64,000 nucleotides of DNA from Clostridia bacterium (GCA_045545475.1 JAZQAZ010000018.1:32001-96000), one strand, 5' to 3'; positions 3,303 through 49,297 are shown, counted from the stretch's first letter. The notes: a model not told the origin generated them from the sequence alone. Numbers and translations are program-made.

Positions 3303-3327
3303 CAAAAAGGCGGAAAAGTTGTATATT
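3299..3327 (+). promoter_or_regulatory. SigA-type promoter for the chr/sua5 gene cluster
   Basis: TTGACA-17 bp-TATATT. Confidence 0.65.
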
Positions 3328-3360
3328 ATAAGTTGATTTAAATGACGAGGAGACAGTGCT

Positions 3361-3915
3361 ATGAAAAAACTTTTGAACCTTTTTTGGGTGTTTTTCAAGA
3401 TAGGTGCATTCACCTTTGGCGGCGGATATGCAATGATACCGATTATTCAGAAGGAAGTTGTTGAAAATAAAAAATGGGTAACCGATGACGATATATTGAA
3501 TGTCATAGCAATTGCGGAATCTACCCCCGGACCCATTGCAATAAATTCAGCCACATTTATTGGCTACAAGGTGGCAGGAATCCTTGGTGCGGCGTGTGCA
3601 ACCTTGGGAGTTGTTATCCCTTCCTTTGTAATAATTACCATTATCGCATTTTTCTTAAATAAATTCAGTGAATATAAGGCTGTGCAGTATGCCTTTTACG
3701 GAATAAGAGCAGGGGTTTTGGCACTCGTTATAAAGGCTCTTATCACAATGTATAAGAAAATGCCGAAAACAGCCATTGCCTACGGAATTGCCGTTTTTGC
3801 ATTTGTTGCATCGCTTGTATTTGATATAATAAATATAAGCATTATATATGTAATTTTGGCCTGTGCCGTAATAGGGCTTGTTTCGTCCTTGATTAAGGTT
3901 AAGGAGGTAGAGTGA
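3361..3915 (+). CDS. Short-chain chromate transporter (CHR family), subunit 1
   Basis: 'FFKIGAFTFGGGYAMIP' and 'ESTPGPIAIN'. Confidence 0.92.
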   Translation: MKKLLNLFWVFFKIGAFTFGGGYAMIPIIQKEVVENKKWVTDDDILNVIAIAESTPGPIAINSATFIGYKVAGILGAACATLGVVIPSFVIITIIAFFLNKFSEYKAVQYAFYGIRAGVLALVIKALITMYKKMPKTAIAYGIAVFAFVASLVFDIINISIIYVILACAVIGLVSSLIKVKEVE

Positions 3916-3916
3916 A

Positions 3917-4498
3917 ATGGAACTTTTCGAGCTTTTTTACACCTTCTTTTATATAGGTATCGTAACCTTCGGAGGCGGCTATGCAATGCTTCCCCTTATC
4001 CAGAGTACAGTGCTCAGCAATGCTTGGATGCCACATGAACAGCTTGTTGACTTTGTGGCAATTTCTGAATCTACACCCGGTCCCTTCGCAATAAATATTG
4101 CAACCTATATCGGGGCGGAAAGATGTGGCATCCTTGGCTCTGTATGTGCAACACTTGGTGTTGTACTGCCGTCTTTTATAATAATATTGCTTGTTGCAAG
4201 AGTTTACGAAAAGTTTAACTCCAACAAAATTGTAAAGGGCGTTATGACAGGTCTTAAGCCTGCTGTAATAGGATTAATTGCATCGGCAGTTTTAACAATC
4301 GGAAAAACAGTTTTAATCCCCGATGTGACAACCTTTATGGGAGTATTTTCAAAGGATGTATTAAGCCTTGAGCTTTTGTGTTCACTCATAATTTTTGCTC
4401 TTGGACTTTTCCTTATCCTTAAAAAGAAAGCACATCCGATTTTGGTAATTGCGCTTTCTGCAACACTTGGAATTTTAGCCGGATATTTCATACTGTAA
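3917..4498 (+). CDS. Short-chain chromate transporter (CHR family), subunit 2
   Basis: 'TFGGGYAMLP' and 'ESTPGPFAIN'; tandem paralog of the previous gene. Confidence 0.92.
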   Translation: MELFELFYTFFYIGIVTFGGGYAMLPLIQSTVLSNAWMPHEQLVDFVAISESTPGPFAINIATYIGAERCGILGSVCATLGVVLPSFIIILLVARVYEKFNSNKIVKGVMTGLKPAVIGLIASAVLTIGKTVLIPDVTTFMGVFSKDVLSLELLCSLIIFALGLFLILKKKAHPILVIALSATLGILAGYFIL

Positions 4499-4509
4499 GG
4501 AACTTTTTT

Positions 4510-5505
4510 ATGATAACTGAGTATTTTGATATAAAACCTTTGGGAATTGAATACGGAAAGATAGATGAAGCGGCAAGAATTTTGCTCTCAGGCGGTCTTG
4601 TTGCTTTTCCTACGGAGACGGTATACGGGCTTGGAGCAGACTGCGAAAATAAAGATGCCGTAAAAAGCATATTTACAGCAAAAGGCCGCCCGATGGACAA
4701 CCCTTTGATAGTACACGTTTCTGATATGGCAATGTGCGAGAAATATGTTTCATATATCCCAAAAAAAGCGGAACTTTTAATGAACAAATTCTGGGGAGGT
4801 CCTCTCACCATCGTTATGAAAAGAAGCAAATATGCCATAGATGAAGTTACTGCAGGGGGAGACACCGTTGCAATACGTCTTCCTTCACATCCTGTGGCAC
4901 ACGCTCTTATAAAGGCTGCAGGAAAGGGGATTGCCGCACCCAGTGCAAATCTTTCAGGTAAGCCAAGTCCCACAACAGCAGAGCACGTGAAAGAGGATTT
5001 TGACGGTAAAATTCCCTGCATAATCGCAGGAGGAAAGGCAGAGCACGGTCTTGAATCCACCGTTATAGATTTAAGCGGAGAAAGACCAATGGTGCTTCGA
5101 CCCGGCGTTATAAGCCTTGATATGATTAAGGAGCTGCTTCCCGATGCCGTATACGGCGGAGGCGGGGAAGGAATCCCCAAAAGCCCCGGTATGAAATATA
5201 AGCACTATGCTCCTGATGCCAAGGTTATAGTTGTAAAAGGCGATATGAAAAAGGAAGCAGAAAACTGTTCCGGCAAGGTACTTTTTATGGACTATGAAGA
5301 TATGCGAGGCGAATACGAAGAAGATAGCTTCCTTTCTGTCGGAAATGATGACACGTCCTATGCGGCATCGCTTTTCTGGCTTTTAAGACTTGCTGATGAA
5401 AAGAAAGCAAAATTCGTTTTAGCAAAGGATCCTAGAGGCGGCGAGCCCGTTTCCGATGCTCTTTGTAACAGACTTTATAAGTCCGCAGGAGGCGATATTA
5501 TATGA
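4510..5505 (+). CDS. sua5: L-threonylcarbamoyladenylate synthase (Sua5/TsaC2)
   Basis: 'VAFPTETVYGLGA', 'KGRPMDNPLIVH', 'AAPSANLSGKPSPT' and 'PGMKYKHYAP'. Confidence 0.95.
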   Translation: MITEYFDIKPLGIEYGKIDEAARILLSGGLVAFPTETVYGLGADCENKDAVKSIFTAKGRPMDNPLIVHVSDMAMCEKYVSYIPKKAELLMNKFWGGPLTIVMKRSKYAIDEVTAGGDTVAIRLPSHPVAHALIKAAGKGIAAPSANLSGKPSPTTAEHVKEDFDGKIPCIIAGGKAEHGLESTVIDLSGERPMVLRPGVISLDMIKELLPDAVYGGGGEGIPKSPGMKYKHYAPDAKVIVVKGDMKKEAENCSGKVLFMDYEDMRGEYEEDSFLSVGNDDTSYAASLFWLLRLADEKKAKFVLAKDPRGGEPVSDALCNRLYKSAGGDII

Positions 5506-5933
5506 TTTTATTCGTATGCACGGGGAACACCTGCAGAAGCCCTATGGCGGAAGCTCTCTATAAAAGCATAACCGGAAAAAATGCAGAATCTGCAGGCTTA
5601 AGTGCGGCGCATAACGGAAAAGCAAGTGAGCATTCGGTTTCGGTTATGGCAAAGCGTGGTATTGATATAAGTAATCACATATCAAAACAGCTGGATTTTT
5701 CCATGTTGGAAGAAGCTGATACCATCATTACTATGACTGAAACACAAAGAACAATGCTTCTTTATTCCGCTCCGGAGTTTGCAAGAAAAATTTTTACAAT
5801 TAAAGAATGGGCAGGGAAATCGGGAGATGTATCCGATCCTTTCGGAAGAAGTGAAGAAGTTTACGAAGAATGTGCAAAAGAACTGGAGGAGCTTATCCGT
5901 GAAGGTGAAAAGCTACACCAAGAATTATTTTGA
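5502..5933 (+). CDS. Low-molecular-weight protein arginine/tyrosine phosphatase (YwlE-like)
   Basis: 'VCTGNTCRSPMAE' P-loop and 'DPFG'; follows sua5 as ywlE does in Bacillota. Confidence 0.9.
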   Translation: MILFVCTGNTCRSPMAEALYKSITGKNAESAGLSAAHNGKASEHSVSVMAKRGIDISNHISKQLDFSMLEEADTIITMTETQRTMLLYSAPEFARKIFTIKEWAGKSGDVSDPFGRSEEVYEECAKELEELIREGEKLHQELF

Positions 5934-6330
5934 TGCTCTTTATGAAATAGAGAAAGAAGCCTTTTCCGATTTCTGGAGTGAAAAAGGGATGAGAGAGGAA
6001 CTCTCGCTTTCTCAGGCACACTATTATGTGGCGGAGGAAGATGGGGAGATACTGGGCTTTGCGGGATTCTGGCTAATAATTGATGAGGCGGAAATAATGA
6101 AAGTTGCGGTAAAAAAGTCGCATCGGGGAAAAGGCATCGGAGATGCACTTCTTAAAGCGATAATTGAGGATTCTATATCCCTTGGTGCAAAAAAAATCCT
6201 TCTTGAAGTAAGGGAAGAAAACACCCCCGCCCGTAAGCTCTATGAAAAAAACGGCTTTATCTCTTATGCGGTGCGGGAGAAATATTACCAAGGCAAAGAA
6301 AATGCAGTTTTGTATAAAAAGAATTTGTAA
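5899..6330 (+). CDS. rimI: Ribosomal protein S18 alanine N-acetyltransferase (GNAT)
   Basis: GGAGGA RBS before GTG 5899; 'HRGKGIG', 'LEVREEN..ARKLYEKNGF' and 'REKYY'; adjacent to tsaD. Confidence 0.88.
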   Translation: MKVKSYTKNYFDALYEIEKEAFSDFWSEKGMREELSLSQAHYYVAEEDGEILGFAGFWLIIDEAEIMKVAVKKSHRGKGIGDALLKAIIEDSISLGAKKILLEVREENTPARKLYEKNGFISYAVREKYYQGKENAVLYKKNL

Positions 6331-6342
6331 AGGAAAGTTTGT

Positions 6343-7341
6343 ATGTTGATTTTAGGAATAGAAAGCTCTTGCGATGAAACTGCGGCAGCGGTTGTTAAGG
6401 ACGGTCGTGAGGTTTTATCGGATGTTATATATTCTCAGGCGGAAATTCATTCCAGATACGGAGGAGTTGTACCTGAAATTGCATCGAGAAGGCATATTGA
6501 AAAGGTGCTTTATGTGATAGATAAAGCACTTAACGATGCCAATGTGACGAAGGAGGATATTGATGCAATTGCTGTTACATGCGGCCCCGGGTTGGTGGGA
6601 GCACTCCTTGTGGGAGTTTCTGCGGCAAAATCCCTGGCAGTTGCATGGGGTAAGCCTCTTATTCCTGTGAATCATATAAAGGGGCATATTTCGGCTAATT
6701 ATGTGGCGTTTTCAAATCTTGAACCTCCGTTCATATGTCTTGTGGCATCAGGAGGACACAGCCATATCGTTCATGTAAAGGACTATACAGAAATGGAAGT
6801 TTTAGGTGCAACAAGAGACGATGCGGCAGGTGAAGCTTTTGATAAAGTTGCAAGGGTAATCGGACTGGGTTATCCCGGAGGACCAAAGGTGGATGCTGCA
6901 GCTAAAAAAGGAAACCCGGAAGCCTTTTCGTTTCCCAGAGCTAAAACGGGAGATGATTTCTCTTTCAGCGGACTTAAAACTGCAGTAATAAACACCGTAC
7001 ATAAAATGGAGCAAAAGGGAGAAGAAATTCCTGTTTTTGATATAGCCGCAAGCTTTCAACAGGCTGTAGTGGAGGTTTTGGTGGCAAATACGGTTCATCA
7101 GGCAGAAAAAGTGGGAACCGGAAAAATATGCCTTGCGGGCGGAGTTGCTTCAAATTCACTCCTTCGCAGTGAATTTGAGAAGGCGGCAAAGGAGAAAAAA
7201 CTGACGCTTTATTATCCTCCGCTCAGGTTTTGCACAGACAATGCAGTAATGATTGCTTCGGCAGGATTCTTTGCATATAATGCAGGAAATGTGGCATCAT
7301 CAGATCTTAATGCATATCCGGCGTTGAGCCTTGAAGAATAA
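6343..7341 (+). CDS. tsaD: tRNA N6-adenosine threonylcarbamoyltransferase
   Basis: '[11 protein letters not shown]', '[12 protein letters not shown]', 'NHIKGH', '[10 protein letters not shown]' and 'CTDNAVMI'. Confidence 0.97.
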
Positions 7342-7378
7342 AAAAATCCGAAAGCCATTGGCTTTCGGATTTTTTTAT
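7340..7378. terminator. Bidirectional terminator between tsaD and the ROK kinase gene
   Basis: aaaaaatccgaaagcc-att-ggctttcggattttttt between convergent genes. Confidence 0.85.
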
Positions 7379-7381
7379 TTA

Positions 7382-8317
7382 TTAAAGAGCTGTTTTTTCC
7401 AGCATTGCGGCACCTACTATGCCAGCATCATTGCCGAGCTTTGCGGCAACAATTTCTGTTTCATAATCAAAGGCAACTTCTTCACGAAGCTTTTTACGAA
7501 GGGGGATAAGGAGGTTATCTCCTTCCTTACTGATACCGCCGCCTATTACAATAACGTCGGGGTATAAAATTCTTAAAAGGTCGCCGATGCCTATTGCCAG
7601 ATAGTTTATATATTCATCAACAACTTCCTGAGATGCATGGTCGCCCTGTTTTGCAAAATCAAATGCTGTTTTTCCGTTGATGTCGTTTATCGGAATGGAG
7701 TTAAGCAAAGAATCCGGGTGATTTATTGCTTTATGCTTGGTCATGTTGATAAGTCCGGATGCAGAGGCATAAGCTTCAAAACATCCGCGTCTTCCGCATC
7801 CGCAACGCTTTCCGCCTGCGGCAATAATTAAGTGACCGATTTCTCCGGCACCGAATCTATGACCGGTATAAACTTTGTTTTTAAGAATAATGCCGCCGCC
7901 TATTCCGGTTCCAAGGGTTACCATAACAGAGAAGTTTGCTCCGCTTGATGCACCGTATAAATGTTCAGCGTATGCTGCACAGTTGGCATCATTACCAACA
8001 AAGGTTTTAACTCCGGTGAGTTTTTCCATTTCTGAAGATAGATTAACTCCTGCAAGATTAAGGTTTGCAATCTGGAGAACAATACCGTTATCTGAGTCGA
8101 TAAGACCGGGGCTTCCGATACCGATGGATGAAAGCTCGCTCATTTCGATTCCATACTCGGCAACAAGCTTTTTCACAAGATTTGCCATATCGGCAATAAT
8201 TTCTTCTGAAGGTCTTTTCGCTCCTGCTGGAACAGAGTCTTTTATTAAAATTTTACCGTTTTCATCAACTAATCCTGCGGCAATATTGGTACCGCCTAAA
8301 TCAATCCCTGCATACAT
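7382..8317 (-). CDS. ROK family sugar kinase (possibly N-acetylglucosamine kinase)
   Basis: 'GIDLGGT', 'NDANCAA', 'TLGTGIGGG', 'GEIGH' and 'CGCGRRGCFE'; overlaps the nagA stop. Confidence 0.9.
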   Translation of the reverse strand: MYAGIDLGGTNIAAGLVDENGKILIKDSVPAGAKRPSEEIIADMANLVKKLVAEYGIEMSELSSIGIGSPGLIDSDNGIVLQIANLNLAGVNLSSEMEKLTGVKTFVGNDANCAAYAEHLYGASSGANFSVMVTLGTGIGGGIILKNKVYTGHRFGAGEIGHLIIAAGGKRCGCGRRGCFEAYASASGLINMTKHKAINHPDSLLNSIPINDINGKTAFDFAKQGDHASQEVVDEYINYLAIGIGDLLRILYPDVIVIGGGISKEGDNLLIPLRKKLREEVAFDYETEIVAAKLGNDAGIVGAAMLEKTAL

Positions 8318-14534: not shown

Positions 14535-14563
14535 TTGACAGTTTTTATCCGGAATGTTAATAT
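14535..14563 (+). promoter_or_regulatory. SigA-type promoter of the cobalamin operon
   Basis: TTGACA-17 bp-TAATAT with extended TG. Confidence 0.7.
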
Positions 14564-14869: not shown

Positions 14870-14903
14870 GCTGTGGTAATTTTTTAATTACCACGGCTTT
14901 TTT
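14870..14903 (+). terminator. Riboswitch expression-platform terminator (attenuator)
   Basis: gctgtggtaatt-tttt-aattaccacggc followed by tttttt, in the leader upstream of the first CDS. Confidence 0.8.
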
Positions 14904-14987: not shown

Positions 14988-17900
14988 ATGAAAATTAAAA
15001 AAGCGTTATGCCTGCTTTTATCACTGGTTATGATATTCGGCATGGCACCTTCGGCAATAATTTCAGCTGAAGAAAATGAAACAACTGATGAAATTAAGGT
15101 TTATATGACAGTAGTAAATAAGGGTGTTATTGCTTCGGACAATGAAGGAGACATAATGGCAAACCGTGAACTTACGGTTTCGGATATTGACGAAGACGGA
15201 AAATTCACCTTCCACGAAGCGTTAATCGCTGCACATAAGGAATATAACAGCGAAGATGGCTACGATGCAGGAAGCGGAAATGGAGTAAGCGTTGTAAAGC
15301 TCTGGGGAATTGATTCGTATAACAACCTGTTTTTTATAAATGATGTGGGAATTCCCGATGGAGTTGGAATTAATGAGGTAAAAGACGGGAATTTCCTTAC
15401 AACATCAATATGTCAGGATAGCAAATACTACTGTGACCGCTATACCTTCTTTGATAAAAAGGAAGTTACTGCTATCGAAAATGAGGAATTTACTCTTAAC
15501 TTAAAGGGGTTCTGGGGGATGGCTTCTGAAGGAGACGACCTTTTGCCAAAGCCTTTTGAAGGACTTGCTATCTGTACCTGGGAAGATGGCGAACTTAAAG
15601 AGATTGAAGGAAAAGCGACAGACGAAGACGGTAATGTAAATCTTTCCTTTTCCGAAGCGGGAACTTATTATGTGACGGCAAAAGGTACGGTAAAGGCAAT
15701 GGTTACCGACTGGTGGACAATGAAGGAGGTTGAGGCAGACTGCCCCATAATCGCACCGCTTTGTATCGTAACAGTAGAAGAGATTGCTCCTCCCGAATCC
15801 ATTAAGATAGAACACGATGCAAAAAATGTTATTGACGGAGTTATCATAGCTAAAAAGGGCGATAAATTCAATCTCCTTGCCTTTGACGAAAATGGCGAAG
15901 AAACTCCCGTTACATGGAAGAACGAAAGCTACGGCAATACAGTTACAATAGATGAGGTTACAGGCGAAGTAGAGGTTACGGGTGATATTTACGGCGGCAC
16001 ATCCTACCTTTATTTTGAGGCCACATCCACGATTGACGAGACTGTGAAAAAAGAAGTCACCGTTCTTATGACCGGCTTTATCTTAAGCCAGTATCAGAAG
16101 GAGCAGACCGTAACACTTTCTGAGGATGGACAGACGGCAAAGACAGCATCTCTTAATGCCGGTAAAAAAGGACATAATATCTGGAATTATAACATTCCCG
16201 ATGGTGTTGCAGAACTTACTGCAGACCCCGGAAACGGCGGAGAAATAAAGTTCAACGTATATAGACCGGGTGTAATTGAGGTGGGCTTTGCCCTTGACAT
16301 AAATGAGGAGCTTTCCGACAGCGGAATAATTAAAGTAGAGGGCGTTGCCGTTGAAACTTTGAATGGAGAAAGAGGAAAGGTTTATCTTGAGATAGGGAAC
16401 GAGGAAGATGCACCCACAACGGAGCTTACTGCCTATGTTGCGGAGGGCAGAGAGGTTTCCTCGTGGATAAGCCTTGATGAGGATATTGCCACAGTTTCGG
16501 AAAACGGCGTGGTAACGGCTGTGGGTGTCGGAAGCGTAATTATTCAGGCCGTGGACAATGAAGGCGCGAAGGGCGGAATAAAGGTAGTTGTTGAAAGCAG
16601 GGAAATACCTTATTTTGAAAGCATCGAATTTCAGACAAGCTACCTTGCATCGGGTTCCTGGGTAAAGGGCGAAACATTTAATCCCACGGTAACGGAGTAC
16701 GATCTTACTGTTTCACGTTATTCCTTAAGCAATCTTGTTTTTCTTAAGGATACCTTGTATGACGATGTGAAATACTCGGCGAAAGCTTTGTACGAAGATG
16801 TATACGGCGAAGAAAAAGAGGTTTACATACATAGCGGAGCAGCAACAACTCTTTCCGATATACCCTTCGGTACTTCCGCTGTTACGGTAACGCTTTATGA
16901 AAAGGAAAACGAAAAAAATAAAACCGTTTATACCTTTAATGTAACACGTCCGAGAGATAAAACAAAAGCTTTAAAGACGGTTACTGTAAATCCTGAAGGA
17001 AGAACGCTTTCAAATACCTTGTATGAGGGCTATAAAGAAGGAACGATGCTGAGGTGTGACGAAGAAGGAACCCTCACTTCGGTAACAGGAATATACGGCT
17101 CGCATTATTATTACAGAACATATGTATACGGCGAAACCGACTTTACCTTATCCTTTGCCGCATCCACTGCCTATGCTCATATAAGATACAGCGTTGACGG
17201 CGAGGAGTGGACAGAGCTTGATTCTTTATTGAAATCGGAAAAACTTTCCTTTGACGAGGATGGTGTTATTGAGCTTTATATAGAAATTGCAGACGACGAT
17301 AGTTATACCTCTGACAAAGAAGCAGAGGGTGACGGATTTTCGGAGGGAAATACGGTAAGCTACAAGCTCACATTGATGAATGTTTCCGCAGAAGCTCCGA
17401 AAATGCTTACGGCTGAGGCAGAAGGGGACTGGTATCCTGCTTTTTCTCCTGACTTTTATACCTATCGCATAATGACAGAAAGTGATGCAAAAGCTCCCGT
17501 GCTTACCTTTACGGCAGAAGAAGGAGCAATTGTAAAAGATGAAAAAGAAATTATTGAGCCTGACGAGAACGGAATATATTCCGTAACCCTTAAAAACACA
17601 CAAAAGAGCATTACCCTTTCAGACAGCGAAGAAAAGTGCGTTAATACATATAAGTTCCAGTACACGAGAAAGTCATCCTCTGCTGTGCCCGATAAAGTGG
17701 TTGAGGCGGTATATATCGGCGGTCAGTATTCGGGAAGCTATGACGTTTATCCCGAACTTACGCTGACAGGCTCTATGCGTTCTCTCGGTAACTTCGGAGG
17801 ATATATCACATACTATTTTGAAGAAGCACTAAAAGATAACCCAAACAATATGTACGGTATGGAGTTTTACATCTTCGGAAACAGTATGGAGATGAATATT

Positions 17901-20141
17901 GATTCCATGGCGGAGCTTGGTCAGGTATACGTTTCCGAGGATGGAGAAACCTGGTATGCCCTTGCGGGAAGTGAGCATTATGAGGATAAGGCTTTATGGG
18001 ACTATGAAATAACCTATAAAAAGGGCGAGGATGGAAAGGCTTACTGGACGGATAATTACGGCAATGAAATGCTTACATCTGCCGCAAAGGCGTGGCCTGC
18101 AAAGGAAAAGTACCCCTTAAATCCCTATACGGAGGATGATGAATATACCTTCTCGGGAATTCTTTTCAAATGCCAGGAAGGCACTGTTATGGGTGATTCC
18201 ACCAACGGAAGCTTTGCATCAAAGGCATCCTTCGGCTATGTAGACTATTATAAGAACGGAAGCATAGTTGACGGAATGGTGGAGGATGTAAATTCCTATG
18301 TTGAAAATCCCACAATGGCAAACGGCTTTGACCTTCTCTGGGCGGTTGATGCTGAGGGAAACCCCGTGGATGTAAGTGATAAGGAATTCCATTATGTAAA
18401 GGTTGCAACTGCATCAAACATATGGGCGGGAAGCTTTTTTGAAAAATCCACTGAGGTAAGCAGCATAATTAGGACAACTCCTAAAGAAAACGAAGTTGGT
18501 AAAACCGAGGCCCCGGAAAGCATTGTGTTCACCGACGGTATCAGTGAGGTGAAAGTAAATATTTCGGAGGAAAAAAATATTTACGATATTGACCTTGGGG
18601 ATATGAAGTATATTTCCGTGAAGCTTAACGGTGCCAAGGAAGATGACAACATTTATATAAATAATCAGAGAATTGAAAGTGACGGAGCCGGAGAAGGCTT
18701 TAAGGTAACAAAGAAAAAAGAAACCCTTGTAAGATTAATTGTACAGAATGGAGACAGGGAGCCTTATCTTGCTCTTTTCCGTCTTTCGGGAACTGCAAAA
18801 GAAACTGACGAGCTTATTGAAGGCGTAAAGATAAATGTAGGAGGAGACATAAGAGAAGCTTGGACAAAGAATAAAAAGACCTATTCTGCTGAAGTGGGAA
18901 GCAAAATCGACAGCGTGAAAATTTTCCCTGTTGTAAAAAGCGGTGTTTCCGTTTTAATAAACGGACAGGAGCTTCTTTCCGAGTATGAACTTTCTTACGG
19001 TAAAAATTCCTTTGAAATAAATGTGGCGGATAAAGATGAAGAAAAAACAGTTACGCTGAATATAACAAGGAATAAAGAAACGGTTTCATCAGACAGTGAA
19101 ATTTCCGTAAGTTTCACCCTTTACGGAGATGATTTTCACGATGAAGATACCGTGCATACATTTAAAAACGATAAAAAGGATTTGCCGGTATGGATTACGA
19201 AAACAACATACAAGGTTGAAAAAGGTTCAACGGTTCTTGATGTATTTGAAATGGCTCTTTCGGATGCGGACATCACCTTTACAAATGCCGATGGGAATTA
19301 TATCTCCGAGATAAACGGACTTTCGGAGTTTGATAATGGTGCATTGTCAGGCTGGATGTACACCGTCAATGGAAAATATTCAAATCTTGGCTTATCGGAG
19401 CAAAAAGTGAAAAACGGAGATAAAATAGTGTTCCATTATACCGATGACTATACAAAAGAGAGCAGATCAGGTTCTTCGCAATCGGTGTCTTCGTCAGTGA
19501 AAGATGATGAAAAAGACGAAGAAAAGGAAGATGAAGAAAAGGAAGAAACAAAGCCCTCTGAAGAAAAGAAAGAAAATAAGAAGGAGTTTACGGACAGCAC
19601 TTTCAAGGATGTGAAAAAGGATAGTTGGTACTACGGAGCGGTAGAGTATTGCTATGAAAATACACTCATGGAAGGAACCGGGGAAAACTTTGAACCCGAT
19701 GCCCCGATGACAAGAGCTATGCTTGTAACAGTGCTTTTCAGATTATCGGGAGAAGAAGCGGGAAAAGAGAATCCTTTTGTCGATGTAGTTGATGGATTGT
19801 GGTATTCTGATGCGGTAATGTGGGCAAGTGAAAACGGTATTGTAACGGGAGTTACGGAAAAGAAATTTGCACCCGATGAGAATATAACAAGAGAGCAGGC
19901 AGTGACAGTTATTATAAGATACTTAGAGCATATAGACAAAGGCGTGGCAAAAAAAGCCGAACTTTCAGGATATACCGATGCTGAGGAAATAAGTCCATGG
20001 GCACTTGACGCTTTTTCTCTTGCCGTGGAAGGCGGAATAATTACCGGAACAGAGGATAAAAAGCTTTCGCCTAAAGAGGGTGCGACCAGGGCAGAAATAG
20101 CGACGATTATAATGAGGGTGTATGAAACTATTCTGAAATAA
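14988..20141 (+). CDS. Large SLH-anchored surface protein with Ig/cadherin-like repeats, a BtuH-like domain and DUF4430; putative corrinoid-capture protein
   Basis: Signal peptide; Big_2-like 'WISLDEDIATVSENGVVTAVGVG'; 'SLGNFGGYITYYF...FGNS...ELGQVYVSEDGETWYALAGSEH'; DUF4430 'YISEINGLSEFDNGALSGWMYTVNG'; three C-terminal SLH repeats. Confidence 0.85.
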   Translation: MKIKKALCLLLSLVMIFGMAPSAIISAEENETTDEIKVYMTVVNKGVIASDNEGDIMANRELTVSDIDEDGKFTFHEALIAAHKEYNSEDGYDAGSGNGVSVVKLWGIDSYNNLFFINDVGIPDGVGINEVKDGNFLTTSICQDSKYYCDRYTFFDKKEVTAIENEEFTLNLKGFWGMASEGDDLLPKPFEGLAICTWEDGELKEIEGKATDEDGNVNLSFSEAGTYYVTAKGTVKAMVTDWWTMKEVEADCPIIAPLCIVTVEEIAPPESIKIEHDAKNVIDGVIIAKKGDKFNLLAFDENGEETPVTWKNESYGNTVTIDEVTGEVEVTGDIYGGTSYLYFEATSTIDETVKKEVTVLMTGFILSQYQKEQTVTLSEDGQTAKTASLNAGKKGHNIWNYNIPDGVAELTADPGNGGEIKFNVYRPGVIEVGFALDINEELSDSGIIKVEGVAVETLNGERGKVYLEIGNEEDAPTTELTAYVAEGREVSSWISLDEDIATVSENGVVTAVGVGSVIIQAVDNEGAKGGIKVVVESREIPYFESIEFQTSYLASGSWVKGETFNPTVTEYDLTVSRYSLSNLVFLKDTLYDDVKYSAKALYEDVYGEEKEVYIHSGAATTLSDIPFGTSAVTVTLYEKENEKNKTVYTFNVTRPRDKTKALKTVTVNPEGRTLSNTLYEGYKEGTMLRCDEEGTLTSVTGIYGSHYYYRTYVYGETDFTLSFAASTAYAHIRYSVDGEEWTELDSLLKSEKLSFDEDGVIELYIEIADDDSYTSDKEAEGDGFSEGNTVSYKLTLMNVSAEAPKMLTAEAEGDWYPAFSPDFYTYRIMTESDAKAPVLTFTAEEGAIVKDEKEIIEPDENGIYSVTLKNTQKSITLSDSEEKCVNTYKFQYTRKSSSAVPDKVVEAVYIGGQYSGSYDVYPELTLTGSMRSLGNFGGYITYYFEEALKDNPNNMYGMEFYIFGNSMEMNIDSMAELGQVYVSEDGETWYALAGSEHYEDKALWDYEITYKKGEDGKAYWTDNYGNEMLTSAAKAWPAKEKYPLNPYTEDDEYTFSGILFKCQEGTVMGDSTNGSFASKASFGYVDYYKNGSIVDGMVEDVNSYVENPTMANGFDLLWAVDAEGNPVDVSDKEFHYVKVATASNIWAGSFFEKSTEVSSIIRTTPKENEVGKTEAPESIVFTDGISEVKVNISEEKNIYDIDLGDMKYISVKLNGAKEDDNIYINNQRIESDGAGEGFKVTKKKETLVRLIVQNGDREPYLALFRLSGTAKETDELIEGVKINVGGDIREAWTKNKKTYSAEVGSKIDSVKIFPVVKSGVSVLINGQELLSEYELSYGKNSFEINVADKDEEKTVTLNITRNKETVSSDSEISVSFTLYGDDFHDEDTVHTFKNDKKDLPVWITKTTYKVEKGSTVLDVFEMALSDADITFTNADGNYISEINGLSEFDNGALSGWMYTVNGKYSNLGLSEQKVKNGDKIVFHYTDDYTKESRSGSSQSVSSSVKDDEKDEEKEDEEKEETKPSEEKKENKKEFTDSTFKDVKKDSWYYGAVEYCYENTLMEGTGENFEPDAPMTRAMLVTVLFRLSGEEAGKENPFVDVVDGLWYSDAVMWASENGIVTGVTEKKFAPDENITREQAVTVIIRYLEHIDKGVAKKAELSGYTDAEEISPWALDAFSLAVEGGIITGTEDKKLSPKEGATRAEIATIIMRVYETILK

Positions 20142-20150
20142 GGTGAAAAA

Positions 20151-21209
20151 GTGAAAAAAACGATAGCTTTTATATTGATTATAATAATGAGCTTTCAGGC
20201 TACAAGTGTATTTTCTGAAGACACGGAAATAAACAGTGTGCTCTATAAATGTTCTGAATATATTCTTAATACTGTAAAAAATCCCACTTGTTCCTCGGTG
20301 GGAGGGGAATGGACTGTCTTAGGTCTTGCGAGAAGCGGTATCAAAATATCCGATGGATATTTTGATACCTATTACTCAAATCTCTGTGATTATTTAAATT
20401 CATGTGGCGGCGTAATGCACAGGGTTAAATATACAGAATATTCAAGGGCGATAATCGCTGTTACGGCAATTGGCAAAAATCCCTCGGATGTTTCGGGATA
20501 CAATCTTCTTTTGCCGCTTTCTGATTTTGATAAAACGGTAAAGCAGGGAATAAACGGCCCTATATGGGCATTGATAGCACTGGATTCGGGAAATTATGCG
20601 ATTGATGAAAATGTAAACGCTGTAAATCCCGCAACAAGAGAAAAATATGTTGACTATATACTTTCTAAGCAAACCTCCGAAGGAACATGGTCTTTATCCG
20701 GGGAAGGGACGGATCCGGATATTACGGCAATGGCACTTGTGGCTTTGTCAAAATATAAAGAGCGACAGGACGTTAAAGATGCTTTGACAAAAGCAATAAC
20801 TAAGATGTCAGAATTACAGACTTCATCCGGAGGATATATTACTGAAGGAACAGAAAGCTCAGAGAGTTCTGCCCAAATGCTGGTAGCACTTTCTGAGCTT
20901 GGAATAAGCTATACGGATTCCCGGTTTACAAAAAACGGCAACAATCTTCTTACAAATCTTTTGTCTTTTATGTTGCCGGAAGGAAGCTTTTGCCATACAA
21001 AGGCGAAAAAAGAGGCAAATCTTATGGCGACAGAGCAAGCATTTTACGCTGTTGTTTCAGTAAATCGGACGACAAAAGGAGAAAATACGCTTTATAATAT
21101 GTCGGATATTGCAAAAAAAGATAATTTGAGCTATAATGAATCATACATATCGGTTGTTATAGAGAAATTAAAGCTGATTACAGAAGCACTGGATAGGGCA
21201 AAGGGGTAA
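20151..21209 (+). CDS. Secreted alpha/alpha-barrel protein (prenyltransferase/squalene-cyclase-repeat fold; resembles the transcobalamin alpha domain)
   Basis: Signal peptide; helical repeats 'QGINGPIWALIALDS', 'DPDITAMALVALS', 'SESSAQMLVAL' and 'NLMATEQA'. Confidence 0.8.
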   Translation: MKKTIAFILIIIMSFQATSVFSEDTEINSVLYKCSEYILNTVKNPTCSSVGGEWTVLGLARSGIKISDGYFDTYYSNLCDYLNSCGGVMHRVKYTEYSRAIIAVTAIGKNPSDVSGYNLLLPLSDFDKTVKQGINGPIWALIALDSGNYAIDENVNAVNPATREKYVDYILSKQTSEGTWSLSGEGTDPDITAMALVALSKYKERQDVKDALTKAITKMSELQTSSGGYITEGTESSESSAQMLVALSELGISYTDSRFTKNGNNLLTNLLSFMLPEGSFCHTKAKKEANLMATEQAFYAVVSVNRTTKGENTLYNMSDIAKKDNLSYNESYISVVIEKLKLITEALDRAKG

Positions 21210-21212
21210 GGT

Positions 21213-21968
21213 ATGAAAAAAATAAAAGTTACTATATTATTGCTTTTTGTAATAGCACTGCTTACGTTTACTTTCTGGTGGGGCGGAAACGCTCCCGGAC
21301 TAAGAGGAGTAAATTTTGAAAAGAAAAATACCGAAAATGAAGTTACAGATACGATAAAAAGTACTGAAAGTGTTGAGCTGACAAAAGAAAGTGAAAAAGA
21401 GCCTGAAAAAGAGCCTGAAAAAGACGAAGAAGTAACAATCCTTCCGGAAGTCGAATCTGCTGAGGAAAAAGAAGAAGTTGTTTTACAATCGGAAGAAACA
21501 GAAACTTTGGAGGATTGCATCGTTGATACTGTTTCGGAAACGGTGGAAGAATCAAAAGAAAAGGAAATGTTTTGCACAATTTCGGTAAGGTGTGATACTG
21601 TGTTTGAAAACGAAAATCTTTTGGATGATTTCCTTCTCGGATGTTTACCTTCTGACGGAATTATTCTTGGCACACAGCAGGTATGCTTTACAGCAGGCGA
21701 CAGTGTTTTTGATATACTTGAAAGAACCTTGAAAGAAAAAAACATCCATATGGAATTTACGGCTACGCCCATGTATGAAAGTGTTTATATAGAGGGAATA
21801 GCAAACCTTTATGAATTTGATTGCGGGGAACTTTCGGGCTGGATGTATAAGGTGAACGGAAGCTTTCCGGATTACGGCTCGTCACTTTACGAGGTAAAAG
21901 AAGGCGATGTAATAGAATGGGTTTATACCTGCGACAGAGGAAAAGACGTGGGAGATACTGTAAATTAA
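21213..21968 (+). CDS. Membrane-anchored DUF4430 (transcobalamin C-terminal-like) protein
   Basis: N-terminal TM/signal, Glu-rich linker, then 'YIEGIANLYEFDCGELSGWMYKVNG...GDVIEWVYTCDRG'. Confidence 0.88.
   Translation: MKKIKVTILLLFVIALLTFTFWWGGNAPGLRGVNFEKKNTENEVTDTIKSTESVELTKESEKEPEKEPEKDEEVTILPEVESAEEKEEVVLQSEETETLEDCIVDTVSETVEESKEKEMFCTISVRCDTVFENENLLDDFLLGCLPSDGIILGTQQVCFTAGDSVFDILERTLKEKNIHMEFTATPMYESVYIEGIANLYEFDCGELSGWMYKVNGSFPDYGSSLYEVKEGDVIEWVYTCDRGKDVGDTVN
21393..21424 (+). repeat. 12-bp coding tandem repeat (EKEP) in a low-complexity linker
   Basis: gaaaaagagcct-gaaaaagagcct-gaaaaaga. Confidence 0.6.
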
Positions 21969-21986: not shown

Positions 21987-22868
21987 GTGAACGAATTTAA
22001 GAGATTTCATCCTTTGGTAAATATGGTTTACTTCGTTTTTGCCATAGGCTTTTCGTGCGTGCTTTTAAATCCCTTTTGCCTGATATTCTCTTTAATCGGA
22101 AGTATCGCATTTATGCTTATGTGTGACAGCAAAGGCAAAAAGCAAATAGTTTATTTTGTGCCGGTGTTCATATTTGCCGCACTTTTTAATCCGCTTTTCA
22201 ATCACAGAGGACTTACGATAATAACATATTTCCCGGGCGGAAATCCTTTGACGGAAGAATCCATCGTCTACGGCCTCGCATCAGGTGCCATGCTTGTTGC
22301 GGTAATTGCATGGTTTTCCTGTTTTAACATGGTAATGACCAGCGATAAATTTATCTATCTTTTTGGAAAAGTTGCCCCATCGCTTTCGCTGATTTTATCA
22401 ATGACGTTAAGATTTGTCCCGAGGTTTATCTCGGAACTTAAAAAAGTGGCTGTTGCACAAAAAGGAATCGGAAACGGCATAGGAAACGGGAATATAAAGG
22501 ACAGAATTAAAAACGGATTATCAGTGCTTTCGGTAACGGTTACATGGGCACTTGAAAACGCTGTGGAAACATCTGACAGCATGAAGGCAAGGGGCTATGG
22601 TCTACCGGGCAGAAGTGCATTTTCTCTATTCAAATTTACGAAAAAGGACGCATTAGCTTTAATGTCCGTATTGTTTTTCGGTATATATTCGCTTGTGGGA
22701 GGATTCCTCGGGAAAATAAGCTTTGAATATTTTCCGACATATAAAATGGCACCACTTACAACATACAGCATAAGCGTTTATGCATCATATTTGATTTTTA
22801 TGTTGCTGCCTGCAATTATTGAACTTACGGAGGTGATAAAATGGAATGCTTTAAAATCGAAAATCTGA
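21987..22868 (+). CDS. ECF transporter transmembrane T component
   Basis: 'LRFVPRF' and 'SDSMKARGYG' EcfT motifs; hydrophobic profile. Confidence 0.9.
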   Translation: MNEFKRFHPLVNMVYFVFAIGFSCVLLNPFCLIFSLIGSIAFMLMCDSKGKKQIVYFVPVFIFAALFNPLFNHRGLTIITYFPGGNPLTEESIVYGLASGAMLVAVIAWFSCFNMVMTSDKFIYLFGKVAPSLSLILSMTLRFVPRFISELKKVAVAQKGIGNGIGNGNIKDRIKNGLSVLSVTVTWALENAVETSDSMKARGYGLPGRSAFSLFKFTKKDALALMSVLFFGIYSLVGGFLGKISFEYFPTYKMAPLTTYSISVYASYLIFMLLPAIIELTEVIKWNALKSKI

Positions 22869-25462
22869 CATTCGGTTATCCGGACTGCAAAAAAGCTGCA
22901 CTTGAAGAAATAAGTTTTACAGTCAAAAAAGGAGAATTTATAACCTTAATCGGTAAATCGGGATGCGGCAAGACCACACTTTTAAGACTGTTAAAGCCTT
23001 CCGTTTCGCCTTTTGGAGAAGAATCCGGAAATATATTTTTTATGGGCGAAAATATAAAAACGCTGGAAAAGGAAAAAGAGGCGGCAAAAATCGGCTTCGT
23101 AATGCAAAGTCCCGACAATCAGATAGTAACAGATAAGGTGTGGCATGAACTTGCTTTTGGTCTTGAAAGCCTTGGAATGAAAAGGGAAGAAATAAGGCTG
23201 CGTGTTGCGGAAATGGCATCTTTCTTCGGAATTCAGAATTGGTTCCATAAGAATGTTTCTGAATTATCCGGCGGACAAAAACAGATACTTAATCTTGCGT
23301 CGGTTATGGTTATGCAACCGGAATGTCTTATTCTGGACGAGCCCACAAGCCAGCTTGATCCCATAGCGGCATCGGAATTTTTAAAAACGCTGGAAAAAAT
23401 AAATAAAGAGCTTGGAACAACCGTAATTTTGTCGGAGCATCGTCTTGAAGAAGCGATAGCTTTGTCTGACAGAATCATCGTTTTAGATAACGGAAAACTG
23501 ATGGCAGACGGAACGGCAGACTGTATTTGCGGTGTACTGAAAGAAAAAAAGCACGGCATGTATCTTTCGCTTCCCACACCTGCGAAAATAGCCACGGCAC
23601 TTTCGGAGAAGGTCGAAAACATTCCGCTTAATATAAGGGACGGGGTTTCCTGGCTTAGTGAATATTCTGAAAATCATCCTTACGATGACTCGGTTACAGG
23701 AACGGATAAAAAGCGGGAAATAACCGATGTCTCCATAGAATTAAAGGATGTATATTTCAGGTATAAAAGAGAGCTTCCGGATGTGCTTTCGGCACTTTCA
23801 CTTAAAGTATACAAAGGAGAAATATATTCTATTCTTGGCGGTAACGGAACAGGAAAAACTACAACCATGTCTGTTATGGGAGGAATATTAAAGCCTTACA
23901 GCGGCAAAGTTCTGATTGACGGAAAAGAAATAGAAAAAACTGAAAATTTATATGGAAAAATCGGATTTCTGACACAAAACCCCGAACTGCTTTTCACGGA
24001 AAAAACAGTTATGGAAGATTTATTGGCGGCGGTAAAAGGGGAAGATGCGGAAAATATTGTTATTGACATGGCAAGACTCTTGAAAATTGACGGTCTTCTT
24101 AGGATGCACCCTTATGATTTATCCGGAGGCGAAAAGCAAAGGGCGGCACTTTGTAAAATACTTCTTAAAAATCCGTCAATTCTTCTTCTTGATGAACCGA
24201 CAAAGGGAATGGATGGAGAGTTTAAAAAGATTTTTTCGGGTATTCTTTCAAAGCTTAAAAAAATGGGGAAAACCATTGTTATTGTTTCTCACGACATAGA
24301 GTTTTGCGCGGAAAATTCCGATTACTGTACAATGTTTTTTGATGGCGGAATAGTCAGCGGAGATACTCCCGGAAAGTTTTTCTCCGGTAAGAACTTCTAC
24401 ACCACGGAAGCAAATAAAATGGGCAGAGGAATACTTCCGAAGGCTTATCTTACAGAGGAAATAGTAAAGGCTTTCGGAGGAGAAATGCCTGTGATATGCA
24501 ATGATGACACAGATGTTTTCAAAGCTATAAAAAGAGAAAAGGATGTACATGAAAAGAAAAAAATAAAAATCGGTAAGAATATATTTATAGGAAGCTTATT
24601 TGCAATAATTTTTCTTTTGCTTCAGATATTACTGGGAGATTATTTTGTCGGATGGAAAAATCATGCCGTGCAAATACTCTCATTAGTCTTCCTTGCTTTG
24701 TCTCTTTCGGCTTTTTTTCCTCAGAAAGAATTTGATGTTTCTAAAGTAGAAAAGGGAGAAAGAAGCAGAAAAAGTTTAGTGGCCGTGATTATTGTTTCAC
24801 TTATTATTATTCCGCTTACCCTGTGGCTGGGAACAGAGTTTCTTCAAAATAAAAAATATTATTTTACGAGCCTTATAATAATAGCAGAAACGATATTGCC
24901 TTTTCTGTTTTTATTTGAGAAAAGAAAGCCGAAGGCAAGGGAGCTTGTTGTAATAAGTACACTTGCGGCACTTGCTGTAGCGGGAAGGTCGGCGTTTTTT
25001 ATGGTGGCGAGCTTCAAACCTGTGCTGGCACTTATTATAATTACAGGGGTTACTTTGGGTGGAGAAACAGGATTTTTGGTTGGTGCAATAACGGCATTTG
25101 TTTCGAATTTCTTTTTCGGTCAGGGACCGTGGACTCCGTGGCAGATGGCTGCTTTTGCCGTAATAGGTTGCCTTGCCGGAATAATTTTCAGCTCCGGAAT
25201 GATAAAAAGATCGAGGCTTTCGCTATGTATATTCGGAGCGTTTGCGGCACTTTTTATCTACGGAGGAATCATGAATCCGGCTTCCGTTCTTACAATTTCG
25301 GCAGAGACTAGTAAAGATGCGATTCTTTCATCTTTCGTTTTGGGACTTCCGCATGATATAATCCATGCGGCATCTACCTTTATTTTCCTCTGGTTTATCT
25401 CCGGAGCGATGATAGAAAAAATTGAACGTATTAAGAAAAAATACGGTCTTATAAAAATGTAA
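22841..25462 (+). CDS. ECF transporter double ATPase fused to a C-terminal S-component (CbrT-like)
   Basis: Two Walker A motifs (GKSGCGKT, GGNGTGKT), two LSGG signatures and two LDEPT; C-terminal TM domain 'FLVGAITAFVSNFFFGQGPWTPWQM'. Confidence 0.9.
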   Translation: MECFKIENLTFGYPDCKKAALEEISFTVKKGEFITLIGKSGCGKTTLLRLLKPSVSPFGEESGNIFFMGENIKTLEKEKEAAKIGFVMQSPDNQIVTDKVWHELAFGLESLGMKREEIRLRVAEMASFFGIQNWFHKNVSELSGGQKQILNLASVMVMQPECLILDEPTSQLDPIAASEFLKTLEKINKELGTTVILSEHRLEEAIALSDRIIVLDNGKLMADGTADCICGVLKEKKHGMYLSLPTPAKIATALSEKVENIPLNIRDGVSWLSEYSENHPYDDSVTGTDKKREITDVSIELKDVYFRYKRELPDVLSALSLKVYKGEIYSILGGNGTGKTTTMSVMGGILKPYSGKVLIDGKEIEKTENLYGKIGFLTQNPELLFTEKTVMEDLLAAVKGEDAENIVIDMARLLKIDGLLRMHPYDLSGGEKQRAALCKILLKNPSILLLDEPTKGMDGEFKKIFSGILSKLKKMGKTIVIVSHDIEFCAENSDYCTMFFDGGIVSGDTPGKFFSGKNFYTTEANKMGRGILPKAYLTEEIVKAFGGEMPVICNDDTDVFKAIKREKDVHEKKKIKIGKNIFIGSLFAIIFLLLQILLGDYFVGWKNHAVQILSLVFLALSLSAFFPQKEFDVSKVEKGERSRKSLVAVIIVSLIIIPLTLWLGTEFLQNKKYYFTSLIIIAETILPFLFLFEKRKPKARELVVISTLAALAVAGRSAFFMVASFKPVLALIIITGVTLGGETGFLVGAITAFVSNFFFGQGPWTPWQMAAFAVIGCLAGIIFSSGMIKRSRLSLCIFGAFAALFIYGGIMNPASVLTISAETSKDAILSSFVLGLPHDIIHAASTFIFLWFISGAMIEKIERIKKKYGLIKM

Positions 25463-25520: not shown

Positions 25521-25643
25521 ATGAAGATAGAAAGATACGTCGGAGGAAAGAAATTAACCTTTGATCAGATTAAAAAATACACCATTAAAAACAAAGCCGT
25601 AGACATGGCTGTTGAACGTGTTATAAGACGTGAGGGCAGATGA
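25521..25643 (+). CDS. Small basic protein (40 aa) translationally coupled to the recombinase
   Basis: AAGGAGG RBS, ATG 25521, MKIERYVGGKKLTFDQIKKYTIKNKAVDMAVERVIRREGR*; its TGA overlaps the recombinase ATG (ATGA). Confidence 0.75.
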   Translation: MKIERYVGGKKLTFDQIKKYTIKNKAVDMAVERVIRREGR

Positions 25644-26989
25644 AAAAAGCGGCGTTATATATCCGTGTTTCAACGGATGCTCAAAGAGAGGAAGGCTATT
25701 CCATCGAAGCACAGAAGGAAATGCTTTCCGCTTTTTGCGTTACAAAGAAAATTGAAAATTATGAGTTTTTCATAGACGGAGGATATTCGGGAAGCAACTT
25801 GGAGCGTCCGGAAATGCAAAGACTCATAAAAGAGGTTTTTGAAAATAAAATAAGTGCGGTTATAGTTTATAAACTTGACCGACTTTCCCGTAGTCAAAAG
25901 GACACATTGTATTTGATAGAAGAAGTTTTAAACCCCAAGGGTGTTGATTTTATATCCATGAATGAAAGCATGGATACATCAACACCCTTGGGGCGTTTGA
26001 TGCTTGGAATACTATCTGCCTTTGCACAGCTTGAAAGGGAAAATATAAAAGAGAGAACCAGGATGGGGATGAAGGAGAGAGTAAAGGATGGCTACTGGCC
26101 CGGAGGAGGCAGAGTTCCGTTTGGCTATGATTATGACAGCGAAAAGGGGATTTTGGTCCCCAATGAAGATGCAAAAACCGTAAAACTTATATACAGCCTT
26201 TATTTAGATGGTTATCCCATGTATAAGGTGGCTAAAATGGCGGGACTAAAATATGAGCGTCTTGCTGTTCAGATACTTAAAAGAAAGTCCAATGCCGGAT
26301 ATATAATCTATAACGGTGAGGAATATAAAGGTCGTCACGAGCCTTTAATAAGTGAGGAAATTTACAACGCCGCAATGAAAATGATGGAGGAGCGAAGCAC
26401 GAAAAAATTTACCGATTCGGAATATCTTTTATCGGGAATGGTTTACTGCGGAGTGTGCGGGGCAAAAATGCGTTATCAGAAATGGGGAAAGCGTGGATGC
26501 AAACTCTGTTGCTATTCTCTGGAAAAGAACAAGCCTTATCTTGTGAAGGATGAAAATTGCACCAATGAAAAGATATGGGCAGATGAGGTGGAAGAGGCGG
26601 TGACAAAAGATTTACTGGGCCTTTCTTTTGAAATAAACTCGGGAGAATTCAATGAGCCGGATATTAAAGGTGTACTCGAATCAAAAAAAGAGCAGTGCGA
26701 AAAAAAGCTCAAAAGGTTATATAAGCTTTATGCTGAGGGTGAGGATGATGCCTTAATTGATTCCATAAATGAAGCTAAAAAGGAGCTTGGCAAAGCGGAA
26801 AAAGCATTAAACGATGAAAGAGCGAAGCTGTCCGAAAAAAAGCACATGAAGGAAAAAAGAAACTCTCTTAAAACACTTCCCGATACATGGCCGTATATGA
26901 CGAATGCGGAAAAACGCAATATAGTAAGAAGCCTGATAGACAAAGTTACGGTTACCGGGGATAATGTGAAAATTGATTATCTTCTATAA
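25640..26989 (+). CDS. Large serine recombinase (resolvase + recombinase + zinc ribbon + coiled coil)
   Basis: Catalytic 'YIRVSTDAQ', 'YKLDRLSR', 'AQLERENI', 'PFGY', zinc ribbon 'LSGMVYCGVCG' and C-terminal 'KRNIVRSLIDKVTV'. Confidence 0.93.
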   Translation: MKKAALYIRVSTDAQREEGYSIEAQKEMLSAFCVTKKIENYEFFIDGGYSGSNLERPEMQRLIKEVFENKISAVIVYKLDRLSRSQKDTLYLIEEVLNPKGVDFISMNESMDTSTPLGRLMLGILSAFAQLERENIKERTRMGMKERVKDGYWPGGGRVPFGYDYDSEKGILVPNEDAKTVKLIYSLYLDGYPMYKVAKMAGLKYERLAVQILKRKSNAGYIIYNGEEYKGRHEPLISEEIYNAAMKMMEERSTKKFTDSEYLLSGMVYCGVCGAKMRYQKWGKRGCKLCCYSLEKNKPYLVKDENCTNEKIWADEVEEAVTKDLLGLSFEINSGEFNEPDIKGVLESKKEQCEKKLKRLYKLYAEGEDDALIDSINEAKKELGKAEKALNDERAKLSEKKHMKEKRNSLKTLPDTWPYMTNAEKRNIVRSLIDKVTVTGDNVKIDYLL

Positions 26990-40553: not shown

Positions 40554-40577
40554 CAAATAGTGAAGGAGGGCATGGGA

Positions 40578-42946: not shown

Positions 42947-43018
42947 ATATTGCTATCGGCGTTATTATGTGCTATAATAAAAAAGTTGAAAACTACTCGG
43001 AGAAAGGAAGTAAGGCTT

Positions 43019-44641: not shown

Positions 44642-44657
44642 CAAAAGGAGAAATATT

Positions 44658-49268: not shown

Positions 49269-49297
49269 ATACCAGTACTAATGTGGGAGGTATTTTA

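Follow-up and report, generated by a model that had tools for sequence, protein, structure and literature searches.

Organisation of the locus

The subject of this work is a pair of adjacent genes found in a stretch of 64,000 nucleotides from a Clostridia bacterium (GCA_045545475.1 JAZQAZ010000018.1:32001-96000; hereafter the window, from whose start all positions are counted). The genes encode an alpha-barrel protein and a membrane-anchored DUF4430 protein, below simply alpha and beta. A preliminary description of this DNA had read the pair as a split bacterial transcobalamin (TC), made of two open reading frames (ORFs) lying 3 bp apart, the first for a secreted helical-repeat protein and the second for a DUF4430 domain on a long acidic tether. 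The boundaries of both genes and the general character of both products were borne out (Table 1).

The pair is part of an operon-like run of genes preceded by a cobalamin riboswitch and an intrinsic terminator, with a promoter-like site directly 5' of the riboswitch. The riboswitch was the sole Rfam match within the window, and the terminator is, judging from its sequence and place, likely a transcription attenuator of the operon. A genome scan for relatives gave at least 590 confirmed cases among 613 pattern matches, and the best 80 loci were analysed; all of them belong to Bacillota, the closest being 88% identical and coming from a Clostridia metagenome-assembled genome. In 49 of the 80 loci, a home-built, sequence-only model made from eight Rfam-called riboswitches gives a riboswitch-like match that is upstream and lies on the same strand. 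Rfam itself detected an upstream riboswitch in five of the seven loci first examined and supported five of the seven weak-match loci, leaving L012 and L068 unsupported, which brings the overall figure to 47-49 of 80. Many of the 31 loci lacking a riboswitch have little upstream DNA.

The first gene of the run encodes a 1717-residue protein with S-layer homology (SLH) domains. One of its regions matched the BtuH domain of BtuG1 (8BLW, phmmer E 4.2e-12) and BtuH2 (7BIZ, E 2.1e-10), the latter being a protein that binds B12 directly (PMC8941943); in the pairwise alignment, several BtuH2 ligand residues appear to be substituted. ESM Atlas returned unnamed clusters for this part. A BtuH-type domain is mainly a Bacteroidetes feature and sits here in a Gram-positive S-layer protein; a region resembling it was found in 11 of the 80 related loci, and a Firmicute btuH adjoining an ECF-like cobamide transporter has been noted earlier (PMC8941943). 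The same S-layer protein carries a second DUF4430 domain. A beta-bearing gene lies upstream of alpha in 42 of the 80 loci, and in 12 of these the upstream gene bears an alpha domain as well (first profile).

Downstream of the pair are genes for an energy-coupling factor (ECF) transporter. The S part of the fused A-A'-S protein (nucleotides ~24926-25447) had a sole PDB match, 6FNP chain A (E 1.1e-8), the entry for ECF-CbrT, a B12 carrier of Lactobacillus delbrueckii (PMC5997447); a CbrT-like S component accompanied by T and A modules places the transporter among the ECF-CbrT group. EcfT follows alpha and beta in 69 of the 80 loci, and an S component is present in 60, ATPase-fused in 56. The strongest evidence, namely the riboswitch and terminator, the BtuH-like and second DUF4430 domains, and the ECF genes, had gone unmentioned in the preliminary description.

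Table 1. Features of the operon-like run, with positions in the window
Feature	Position	Strand	Basis
Sigma-70-like promoter (TTGACA-17-TAATAT, extended -10)	14535..14563	+	Consensus match, 10/12
Cobalamin riboswitch aptamer RF00174	14573..14774	+	73.7 bits vs gathering 31.5, E 2.7e-16
Intrinsic terminator, 12-bp stem and U tract	14870..14897 or 14907	+	Between aptamer and first gene
S-layer-anchored protein, 1717 residues: signal, Ig-like (Big_2, cadherin-like), BtuH-like, DUF4430, 3 SLH	14988..20141	+	ORF and domain matches
BtuH-type B12-binding domain within S-layer protein	17769..18476	+	phmmer vs PDB
Second DUF4430 (TC-beta-like) within S-layer protein	19224..19442	+	PF14478, residues 1413-1485, E 9.2e-18
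Alpha: secreted alpha6/alpha6 barrel, TC-alpha-like, 352 residues, GTG start, signal residues ~1-22	20151..21209	+	ORF, model, profiles
Helix-start motif DPDITAMALVAL, alpha residues 188-199	20712..20747	+	By motif, D190 corresponds to Asp197 of rat TC and to the DxDD helix of cyclases
N290-x5-Q296, start of last inner helix of alpha	21018..21038	+	Spacing match to rat TC Asn286/Gln292
Beta: membrane-anchored TC-beta-like protein, 251 residues, ATG start; hydrophobic anchor, acidic tether, DUF4430, four conserved Cys	21213..21968	+	PF14478, hydropathy, profile
ECF T component (CbiQ family; CbrV-type)	21987..22868	+	PF02361, E 5.7e-9
Fused ECF A-A' ATPases with C-terminal S component	22841..25462	+	TIGR04520 above cut-off

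The alpha and beta proteins and their natural fusions

Each of the two ORFs is preceded by a purine-rich, Shine-Dalgarno-like (SD-like) stretch, and in each protein the sole hydrophobic segment is N-terminal, with a lipobox cysteine in neither; export segments were judged from hydropathy, both for the window proteins and for their relatives. The structural model of alpha (predicted local distance difference test, pLDDT, 97.5) is an alpha6/alpha6 barrel. Intrinsic factor (IF), haptocorrin (HC) and TC have alpha domains to which it aligns from end to end (Z 18.6, 17.9 and 17.6, respectively; root-mean-square deviation, rmsd, 3.1-3.3; 238-247 aligned residues). Structural identity to these carriers is 14-17%, and the 17% of HC is the highest in the match list. 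Homology of alpha reaches 6006 representatives at 50% identity (E<=0.001), and ESM Atlas returned same-family Bacillota clusters only. Alpha carries SLH domains in 67 of the 80 related loci and has none in the window, where its C-terminal end (21110-21206) is a short, possibly amphipathic helix; similar tails are found in other SLH-less relatives.

Homologues of alpha are labelled 'terpene cyclase/mutase' by their sources. The scores of alpha against the corresponding models are low: 17.3 bits with PF00432 (prenyltransferase beta subunits; cut-off 26.5) and 14-16.5 bits with the cyclase models PF13243, PF13249, TIGR01787 and TIGR01507 (cut-offs 26-431). Residue conservation was assessed on 709 alpha domains, reduced to 215 at <60% identity. 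The cyclase motif DxDD, already reported as lacking in alpha, is indeed absent there, occurs in 0 of the 215 domains at that helix and in four anywhere in the domain; the D-x-D of the catalytic helix is retained in the window alpha and in 150 of the 215. The cyclase label most likely reflects fold, as the preliminary description had supposed. That description had also pointed to the DPDITAMALVAL helix as TC-like, and it is indeed similar to the helix start of TC/IF/HC that appears in Fig. S6 of a rat TC paper (PMC11107200). We rejected this motif as diagnostic of TC, a D-x-D-x-T start being common to cyclases.

In rat TC, five of the residues contacting cobalamin (Cbl) are Asp197, Asn245, Ser248, Asn286 and Gln292 (PMC11107200, text of Fig. 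S3, a machine-read source whose layout may be off). They are spaced +0, +48, +51, +89 and +95, and their candidate counterparts in the alpha family, D190, N/S236, S239, N290 and Q296, are spaced +0, +46, +49, +100 and +106; in the model, each of these residues sits where an inner helix begins. This mapping relies on motif and helix order, not on superposition. Among the 215 domains, D190 is kept in 202, Asn at 236 in 116, Ser or Thr at 239 in 195, N290 in 132 (with Asp in a further 27%) and Q296 in 207. The window alpha matches four of the five C-terminal contacts by motif (D190, S239, N290 and Q296), again as mapped without superposition. No axial His was found before the conserved Asp in alpha, where position 186 is variable. 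Overall, several B12-contact residues appear, on sequence grounds, to be kept in the alpha family.

The DUF4430 domain of beta (PF14478) spans residues 162-239 (E 2.4e-19; 70 bits against a cut-off of 23.8), and its tether (residues 30-118, nucleotides ~21300-21566) contains 32 Asp or Glu among 89 residues (36%). With a profile of diverse beta domains (A5), the best PDB match was human TC-beta (E 0.0012); single-sequence and first-profile PDB searches with beta gave nothing relevant, so that TC-beta was reached with A5 only. Three TC positions, Tyr, Trp and Gly, align with Y192, W210 and G222 of beta, whose conservation across 152 domains is 93, 100 and 70%, and the position of rat TC Asp411 is not conserved in beta domains. 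In the 73 beta genes of the related loci, an N-terminal hydrophobic segment is found in 72, a lipobox in three, and the median tether has 115 residues. Four cysteines, C121, C127, C204 and C240, are present in 58, 60, 55 and 72 of these 73 proteins, respectively, and mostly missing from fused beta domains; they may pair in disulfides, bind a metal or provide an axial ligand to cobalt. Taken together, the homology of the two proteins to transcobalamin's alpha and beta domains is supported.

The arrangement of the pair is steady: in 73 of the 80 loci the very next gene after alpha is beta, and three of the seven exceptions end within 600 bp. Both domains are also found joined, since 118 of the 120 best longer alpha homologues have DUF4430 in the same chain. 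A set of 209 long proteins, composed of these 120 and 89 of 133 new representatives, contains 41 alpha-linker-beta and 38 beta-linker-alpha adjacent pairs. Beta is absent from all 120 near-length homologues of alpha, as is alpha from all 120 homologues of beta, so that the split form must be seen as a stable class and not as a broken gene. A frameshifted single gene was considered and rejected, each ORF having its own start, SD-like stretch and export segment, and the same split recurring across the related loci.

We also modelled a natural alpha-linker-beta fusion from the related locus L023 (7989-9278; pLDDT 95, predicted template modelling score 0.89). All Foldseek matches listed to rank 15 were TC, IF or HC, aligned over both domains (E 1.5e-9 to 2.5e-7), and the next family followed at E 1.4e-4. 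Its open, ligand-free pose (see below) fits ligand-dependent closure, as far as a model can tell, and modelling leaves room for the idea that adjacent domains in giant fusions may pair with other partners. A complex prediction for alpha (A1) with beta (A2), made without B12 and without controls, gave scores of 0.04 and 0.03, the mark being 0.32, and carries no weight either way.

Several relatives show further arrangements. Locus L068 encodes a 1769-residue protein (2635-7941) with five tandem alpha barrels and no beta, located 5' of a beta-SLH gene and of the usual alpha, beta and ECF run. There is a second, divergent beta/T/A/S operon on the minus strand of L039 (1479-9111), and in L044 (5665-9700) a stand-alone alpha and then a beta-SLH gene precede the main alpha, with no ECF genes adjoining. 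In L082, a Vescimonas plasmid (NZ_AP023416.1), alpha-bearing and DUF4430 surface genes lie amid integrase, relaxase and conjugation genes, which suggests that alpha/DUF4430 modules can travel on mobile elements.

Probable cobamide capture and alternative explanations

Three independent features, namely the riboswitch, the BtuH-type domain and the CbrT-like S component, indicate cobamides, and a role of the module in cobamide capture seems to us very likely, the steady gene order and the natural alpha-beta fusions lending further support. With somewhat less assurance, we think that the pair probably represents the alpha and beta halves of a TC-like clamp, acting as the capture front end of a riboswitch-controlled ECF-CbrT cobamide importer. 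At low B12, transcription would read through the attenuator. The beta domain, held at the membrane on its long acidic tether, would bind a cobamide, and the alpha barrel would cap the ligand-bound beta, the halves closing in trans in the manner of animal TC. The tether would then pass the ligand on to the transporter's CbrT-like S component, and ATP-driven uptake would follow, while the second beta domain and the BtuH domain of the S-layer protein would supply extra capture sites. With two separate halves, release would not have to await the proteolysis on which animals depend. Separately expressed alpha and beta domains of human TC share a very small interface and co-elute with Cbl only (PMC5599065); by analogy, a ligand-dependent sandwich of these two chains in trans is a likely event, and we infer that the pair works like animal TC.

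A number of our own observations weigh against this interpretation. Terpene cyclases match the alpha model with Z 20-22.6 (the best two 22.6 and 22.3), above TC, IF and HC; several glycosidase and epimerase barrels also outscore these carriers, and Foldseek with alpha alone places the first TC at rank 10. Because cyclases outscore transcobalamins, fold alone is not diagnostic; the likeness to TC and IF anticipated in the preliminary description stands as an end-to-end alignment, not as the best match. Three alpha-only sequence profiles (A1, A3 and A6), searched against PDB at E<=10, found cyclases and not TC, and the alpha part of profile A7 did not reach TC-alpha by sequence either; as the alpha profiles missed TC-alpha, there is no residue-level alignment between the two. 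The Pfam family Cobalamin_bind (PF01122) is unmatched by the window alpha and matched by four of 69 family members (best E 0.0034, 16.8 bits against a cut-off of 25). HMMER aligns the DPDITAMALVAL stretch with the squalene-hopene cyclase (SHC) helix that bears DxDD, and position 236 of the window alpha is Ser, not Asn. In the L023 fusion model, beta is confidently placed at an rmsd of about 20 Å from holo-TC, so that the clamp is not closed. The operon contains a second beta domain, and the true partner of alpha may be either one. Counts over the 80 loci, the nearest of at least 590, describe close relatives only. To these points should be added the riboswitch-less L. curvatus copy and the L. 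sakei deletion, both treated below with heme.

In a variant of the clamp, which we regard as rather doubtful, the mechanism would lie in the split itself: alpha might be a shared lid, which would cap first the S-layer beta, supplied by the BtuH domain as well, and then the tethered beta, so that the cobamide would be relayed inward through the wall and let go to CbrT with no need for the proteolysis of animal carriers. Were this lid relay true, the family would be a bacterial cobamide-clamp lineage ancestral to animal transcobalamin, an alpha and a beta adjoining in one giant fusion would not have to form a closed pair, and the 'heme' system of L. sakei would be a derived or mis-assigned member.

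Cobamide import might also proceed without such a clamp, beta binding alone, as in the beta-only carriers of fish, and alpha capping the S-layer beta only or serving as a scaffold or release factor. The upstream beta, seen in the window and in 42 of the 80 loci (12 of them with alpha, by the first profile), would agree with this, as would the open pose of the fusion model and the binding of Cbl by isolated TC-beta (PMC5599065). Yet the L. curvatus operon has a single alpha and a single beta gene in the same order, adjacency of alpha to the membrane beta (73 of 80) is far steadier than the upstream beta, and ligand-type polar residues are conserved at the starts of the inner helices of alpha. 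All in all, we consider import without the clamp improbable.

Instead, the ligand of the module might be heme or a further tetrapyrrole that is not a cobamide, in line with the published account of Lsa1836-1840 in the meat bacterium L. sakei, where deletion of lsa1836-1840 cut heme-iron uptake 5- to 8-fold at 5-40 uM (bioRxiv 10.1101/864751). The L. curvatus operon is homologous to ours in the three parts compared, alpha (E 2e-24, 26% identity), beta (2e-28, 48%) and S (7e-39, 37%), and no riboswitch was found with that copy. However, a cobalamin riboswitch precedes the genes here and in 47-49 of the 80 relatives, the S component is CbrT-like, and a BtuH domain is present; moreover, according to the available text of the same preprint, the L. 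sakei effect, measured with heme and not with cobalamin, was missing at low heme and its authors left heme versus cobalamin undecided. Capture of heme or another such tetrapyrrole is, in our opinion, very unlikely for the window.

Finally, it is hardly credible that alpha is an enzyme of the terpene cyclase/prenyltransferase group, as database names would have it: class II cyclases are its best fold and sequence matches, D-x-D is retained in most domains and homologues bear the 'terpene cyclase/mutase' name, but DxDD is missing from that helix in all 215 domains, Pfam and TIGR cyclase models stay far below cut-off, alpha is exported and usually SLH- or LPXTG-anchored, up to five alpha repeats occur in one surface protein (L068), and the genomic context is all B12 uptake. 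Prenyl diphosphates are not expected outside the cell, where alpha is exported.

The rest of the window holds several other genes. Directly after the operon comes a gene for a large serine recombinase (Resolvase, Recombinase, zinc ribbon; 25640-26989), and an SLH-anchored serpin is encoded at 582-2354. A 420-residue protein (44586-45845) has a weak Card1-like endonuclease domain (E 2.3e-6), with no CRISPR genes seen nearby, and the Pfam match of a 209-residue SSB-family protein (49283-49909) is confined to its C-terminal half. Three adjacent ORFs at 40560-43672 (173, 622 and 241 residues) and a 927-residue ORF at 54810-57590 had no Pfam match at E<=1e-5.

Comparison with known systems

Burroughs et al. 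(2007, PMC1796856) described bacterial TC-like SLBB (DUF4430) domains joined to either end of an alpha/alpha toroid, with Ig-fold partners, in operons that hold a second SLBB paralogue and CbiO/CbiQ-like genes; they predicted B12 scavenging and proposed these proteins as the source of animal TC. The window resembles that system in its SLBB and toroid domains, Ig-fold, second SLBB and CbiO/CbiQ-like genes. The available part of that account deals with fusions and operons, as a prediction without experiments; a stand-alone toroid next to a membrane-tethered SLBB, and control by a riboswitch, are what the window has of its own.

A close published counterpart is the L. sakei lsa1836-1840 operon, described by Verplaetse et al. 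as an ECF system with separate exported TC-beta-like and TC-alpha-like proteins, a heterodimer being proposed by homology modelling and deletion of the whole operon lowering heme uptake (bioRxiv 10.1101/864751). Like the window, it has separate alpha and beta genes, then EcfT, fused A-A' and S. It differs in its assignment to heme, whereas the window has a cobalamin riboswitch, an S component fused to A-A' and an alpha without LPXTG; as far as the available description of lsa1836-1840 goes, the additional S-layer protein with beta and BtuH domains belongs to the window only. The L. curvatus operon encodes alpha (LPXTG), DUF4430, T, A-A' and S in the order seen in the window, and, by way of this comparison, the window and L. 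sakei operons would be orthologous. The window shares the marks of the split system: distinct genes for alpha and beta, with T, A-A' and S behind them in a single operon, N-terminal export segments on both proteins and homology to the Latilactobacillus parts.

Animal TC, IF and HC have in common with the pair an alpha6/alpha6 barrel of equal size, a beta-grasp domain and several Cbl-contact residues, as matched by motif. Animal TC is a single chain with a linker, and its ligand is released by proteolysis (PMC11107200). In contrast, the window has two genes, no axial His and a membrane transporter to feed; alpha and beta do not share one chain here, as they do in the fused relatives. ECF-CbrT of L. 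delbrueckii has a homologous S component and is B12-linked, being encoded in an nrdJ-cbrS-cbrT-pduO cluster (PMC5997447), while the window adds its own T, an A-A'-S fusion and the alpha and beta capture proteins. Bacteroides BtuH is a homologous domain, which in the window sits, along with a TC-beta-like domain, within a 1717-residue SLH protein. Class II terpene cyclases (SHC, drimenyl-PP synthase and MstE) have the same barrel, QW-like repeats and the best Z-scores; the window alpha differs from them in being DxDD-less, exported and below the family cut-offs.

In the literature covered, which included few subscription journals, we found no report that a bacterial pair binds B12 or assembles in trans and none linking the pair to cobalamin riboswitches, and the available text of a Dehalobacter corrinoid-starvation paper does not describe the operon (PMC4285132). 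If our interpretation holds, thousands of Bacillota proteins named 'terpene cyclase', 'prenyltransferase' or 'S-layer protein' would be halves of B12-scavenging clamps, and much of the competition for cobamides among Gram-positive bacteria of gut and soil might run through such halves. The compact, riboswitch-tagged pair makes it possible to test, on two small soluble domains, both closure in trans on B12 and whether the ligand of the family is a cobamide or heme, and it is relevant to the proposal that animal transcobalamin came from bacteria (PMC1796856).

Overall, the pair belongs to a published bacterial split system and not to the single-chain family of animals. The split alpha/beta system and the TC-like fusions are already published, and the concept itself is not new. 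What the window locus adds is B12-specific regulation, an S-layer protein, from a Gram-positive operon, that combines BtuH and TC-beta domains, and an inexpensive way of testing both in-trans assembly and a relay model, in a convergent B12-specific context to be set against the published assignment of its L. sakei counterpart to heme.

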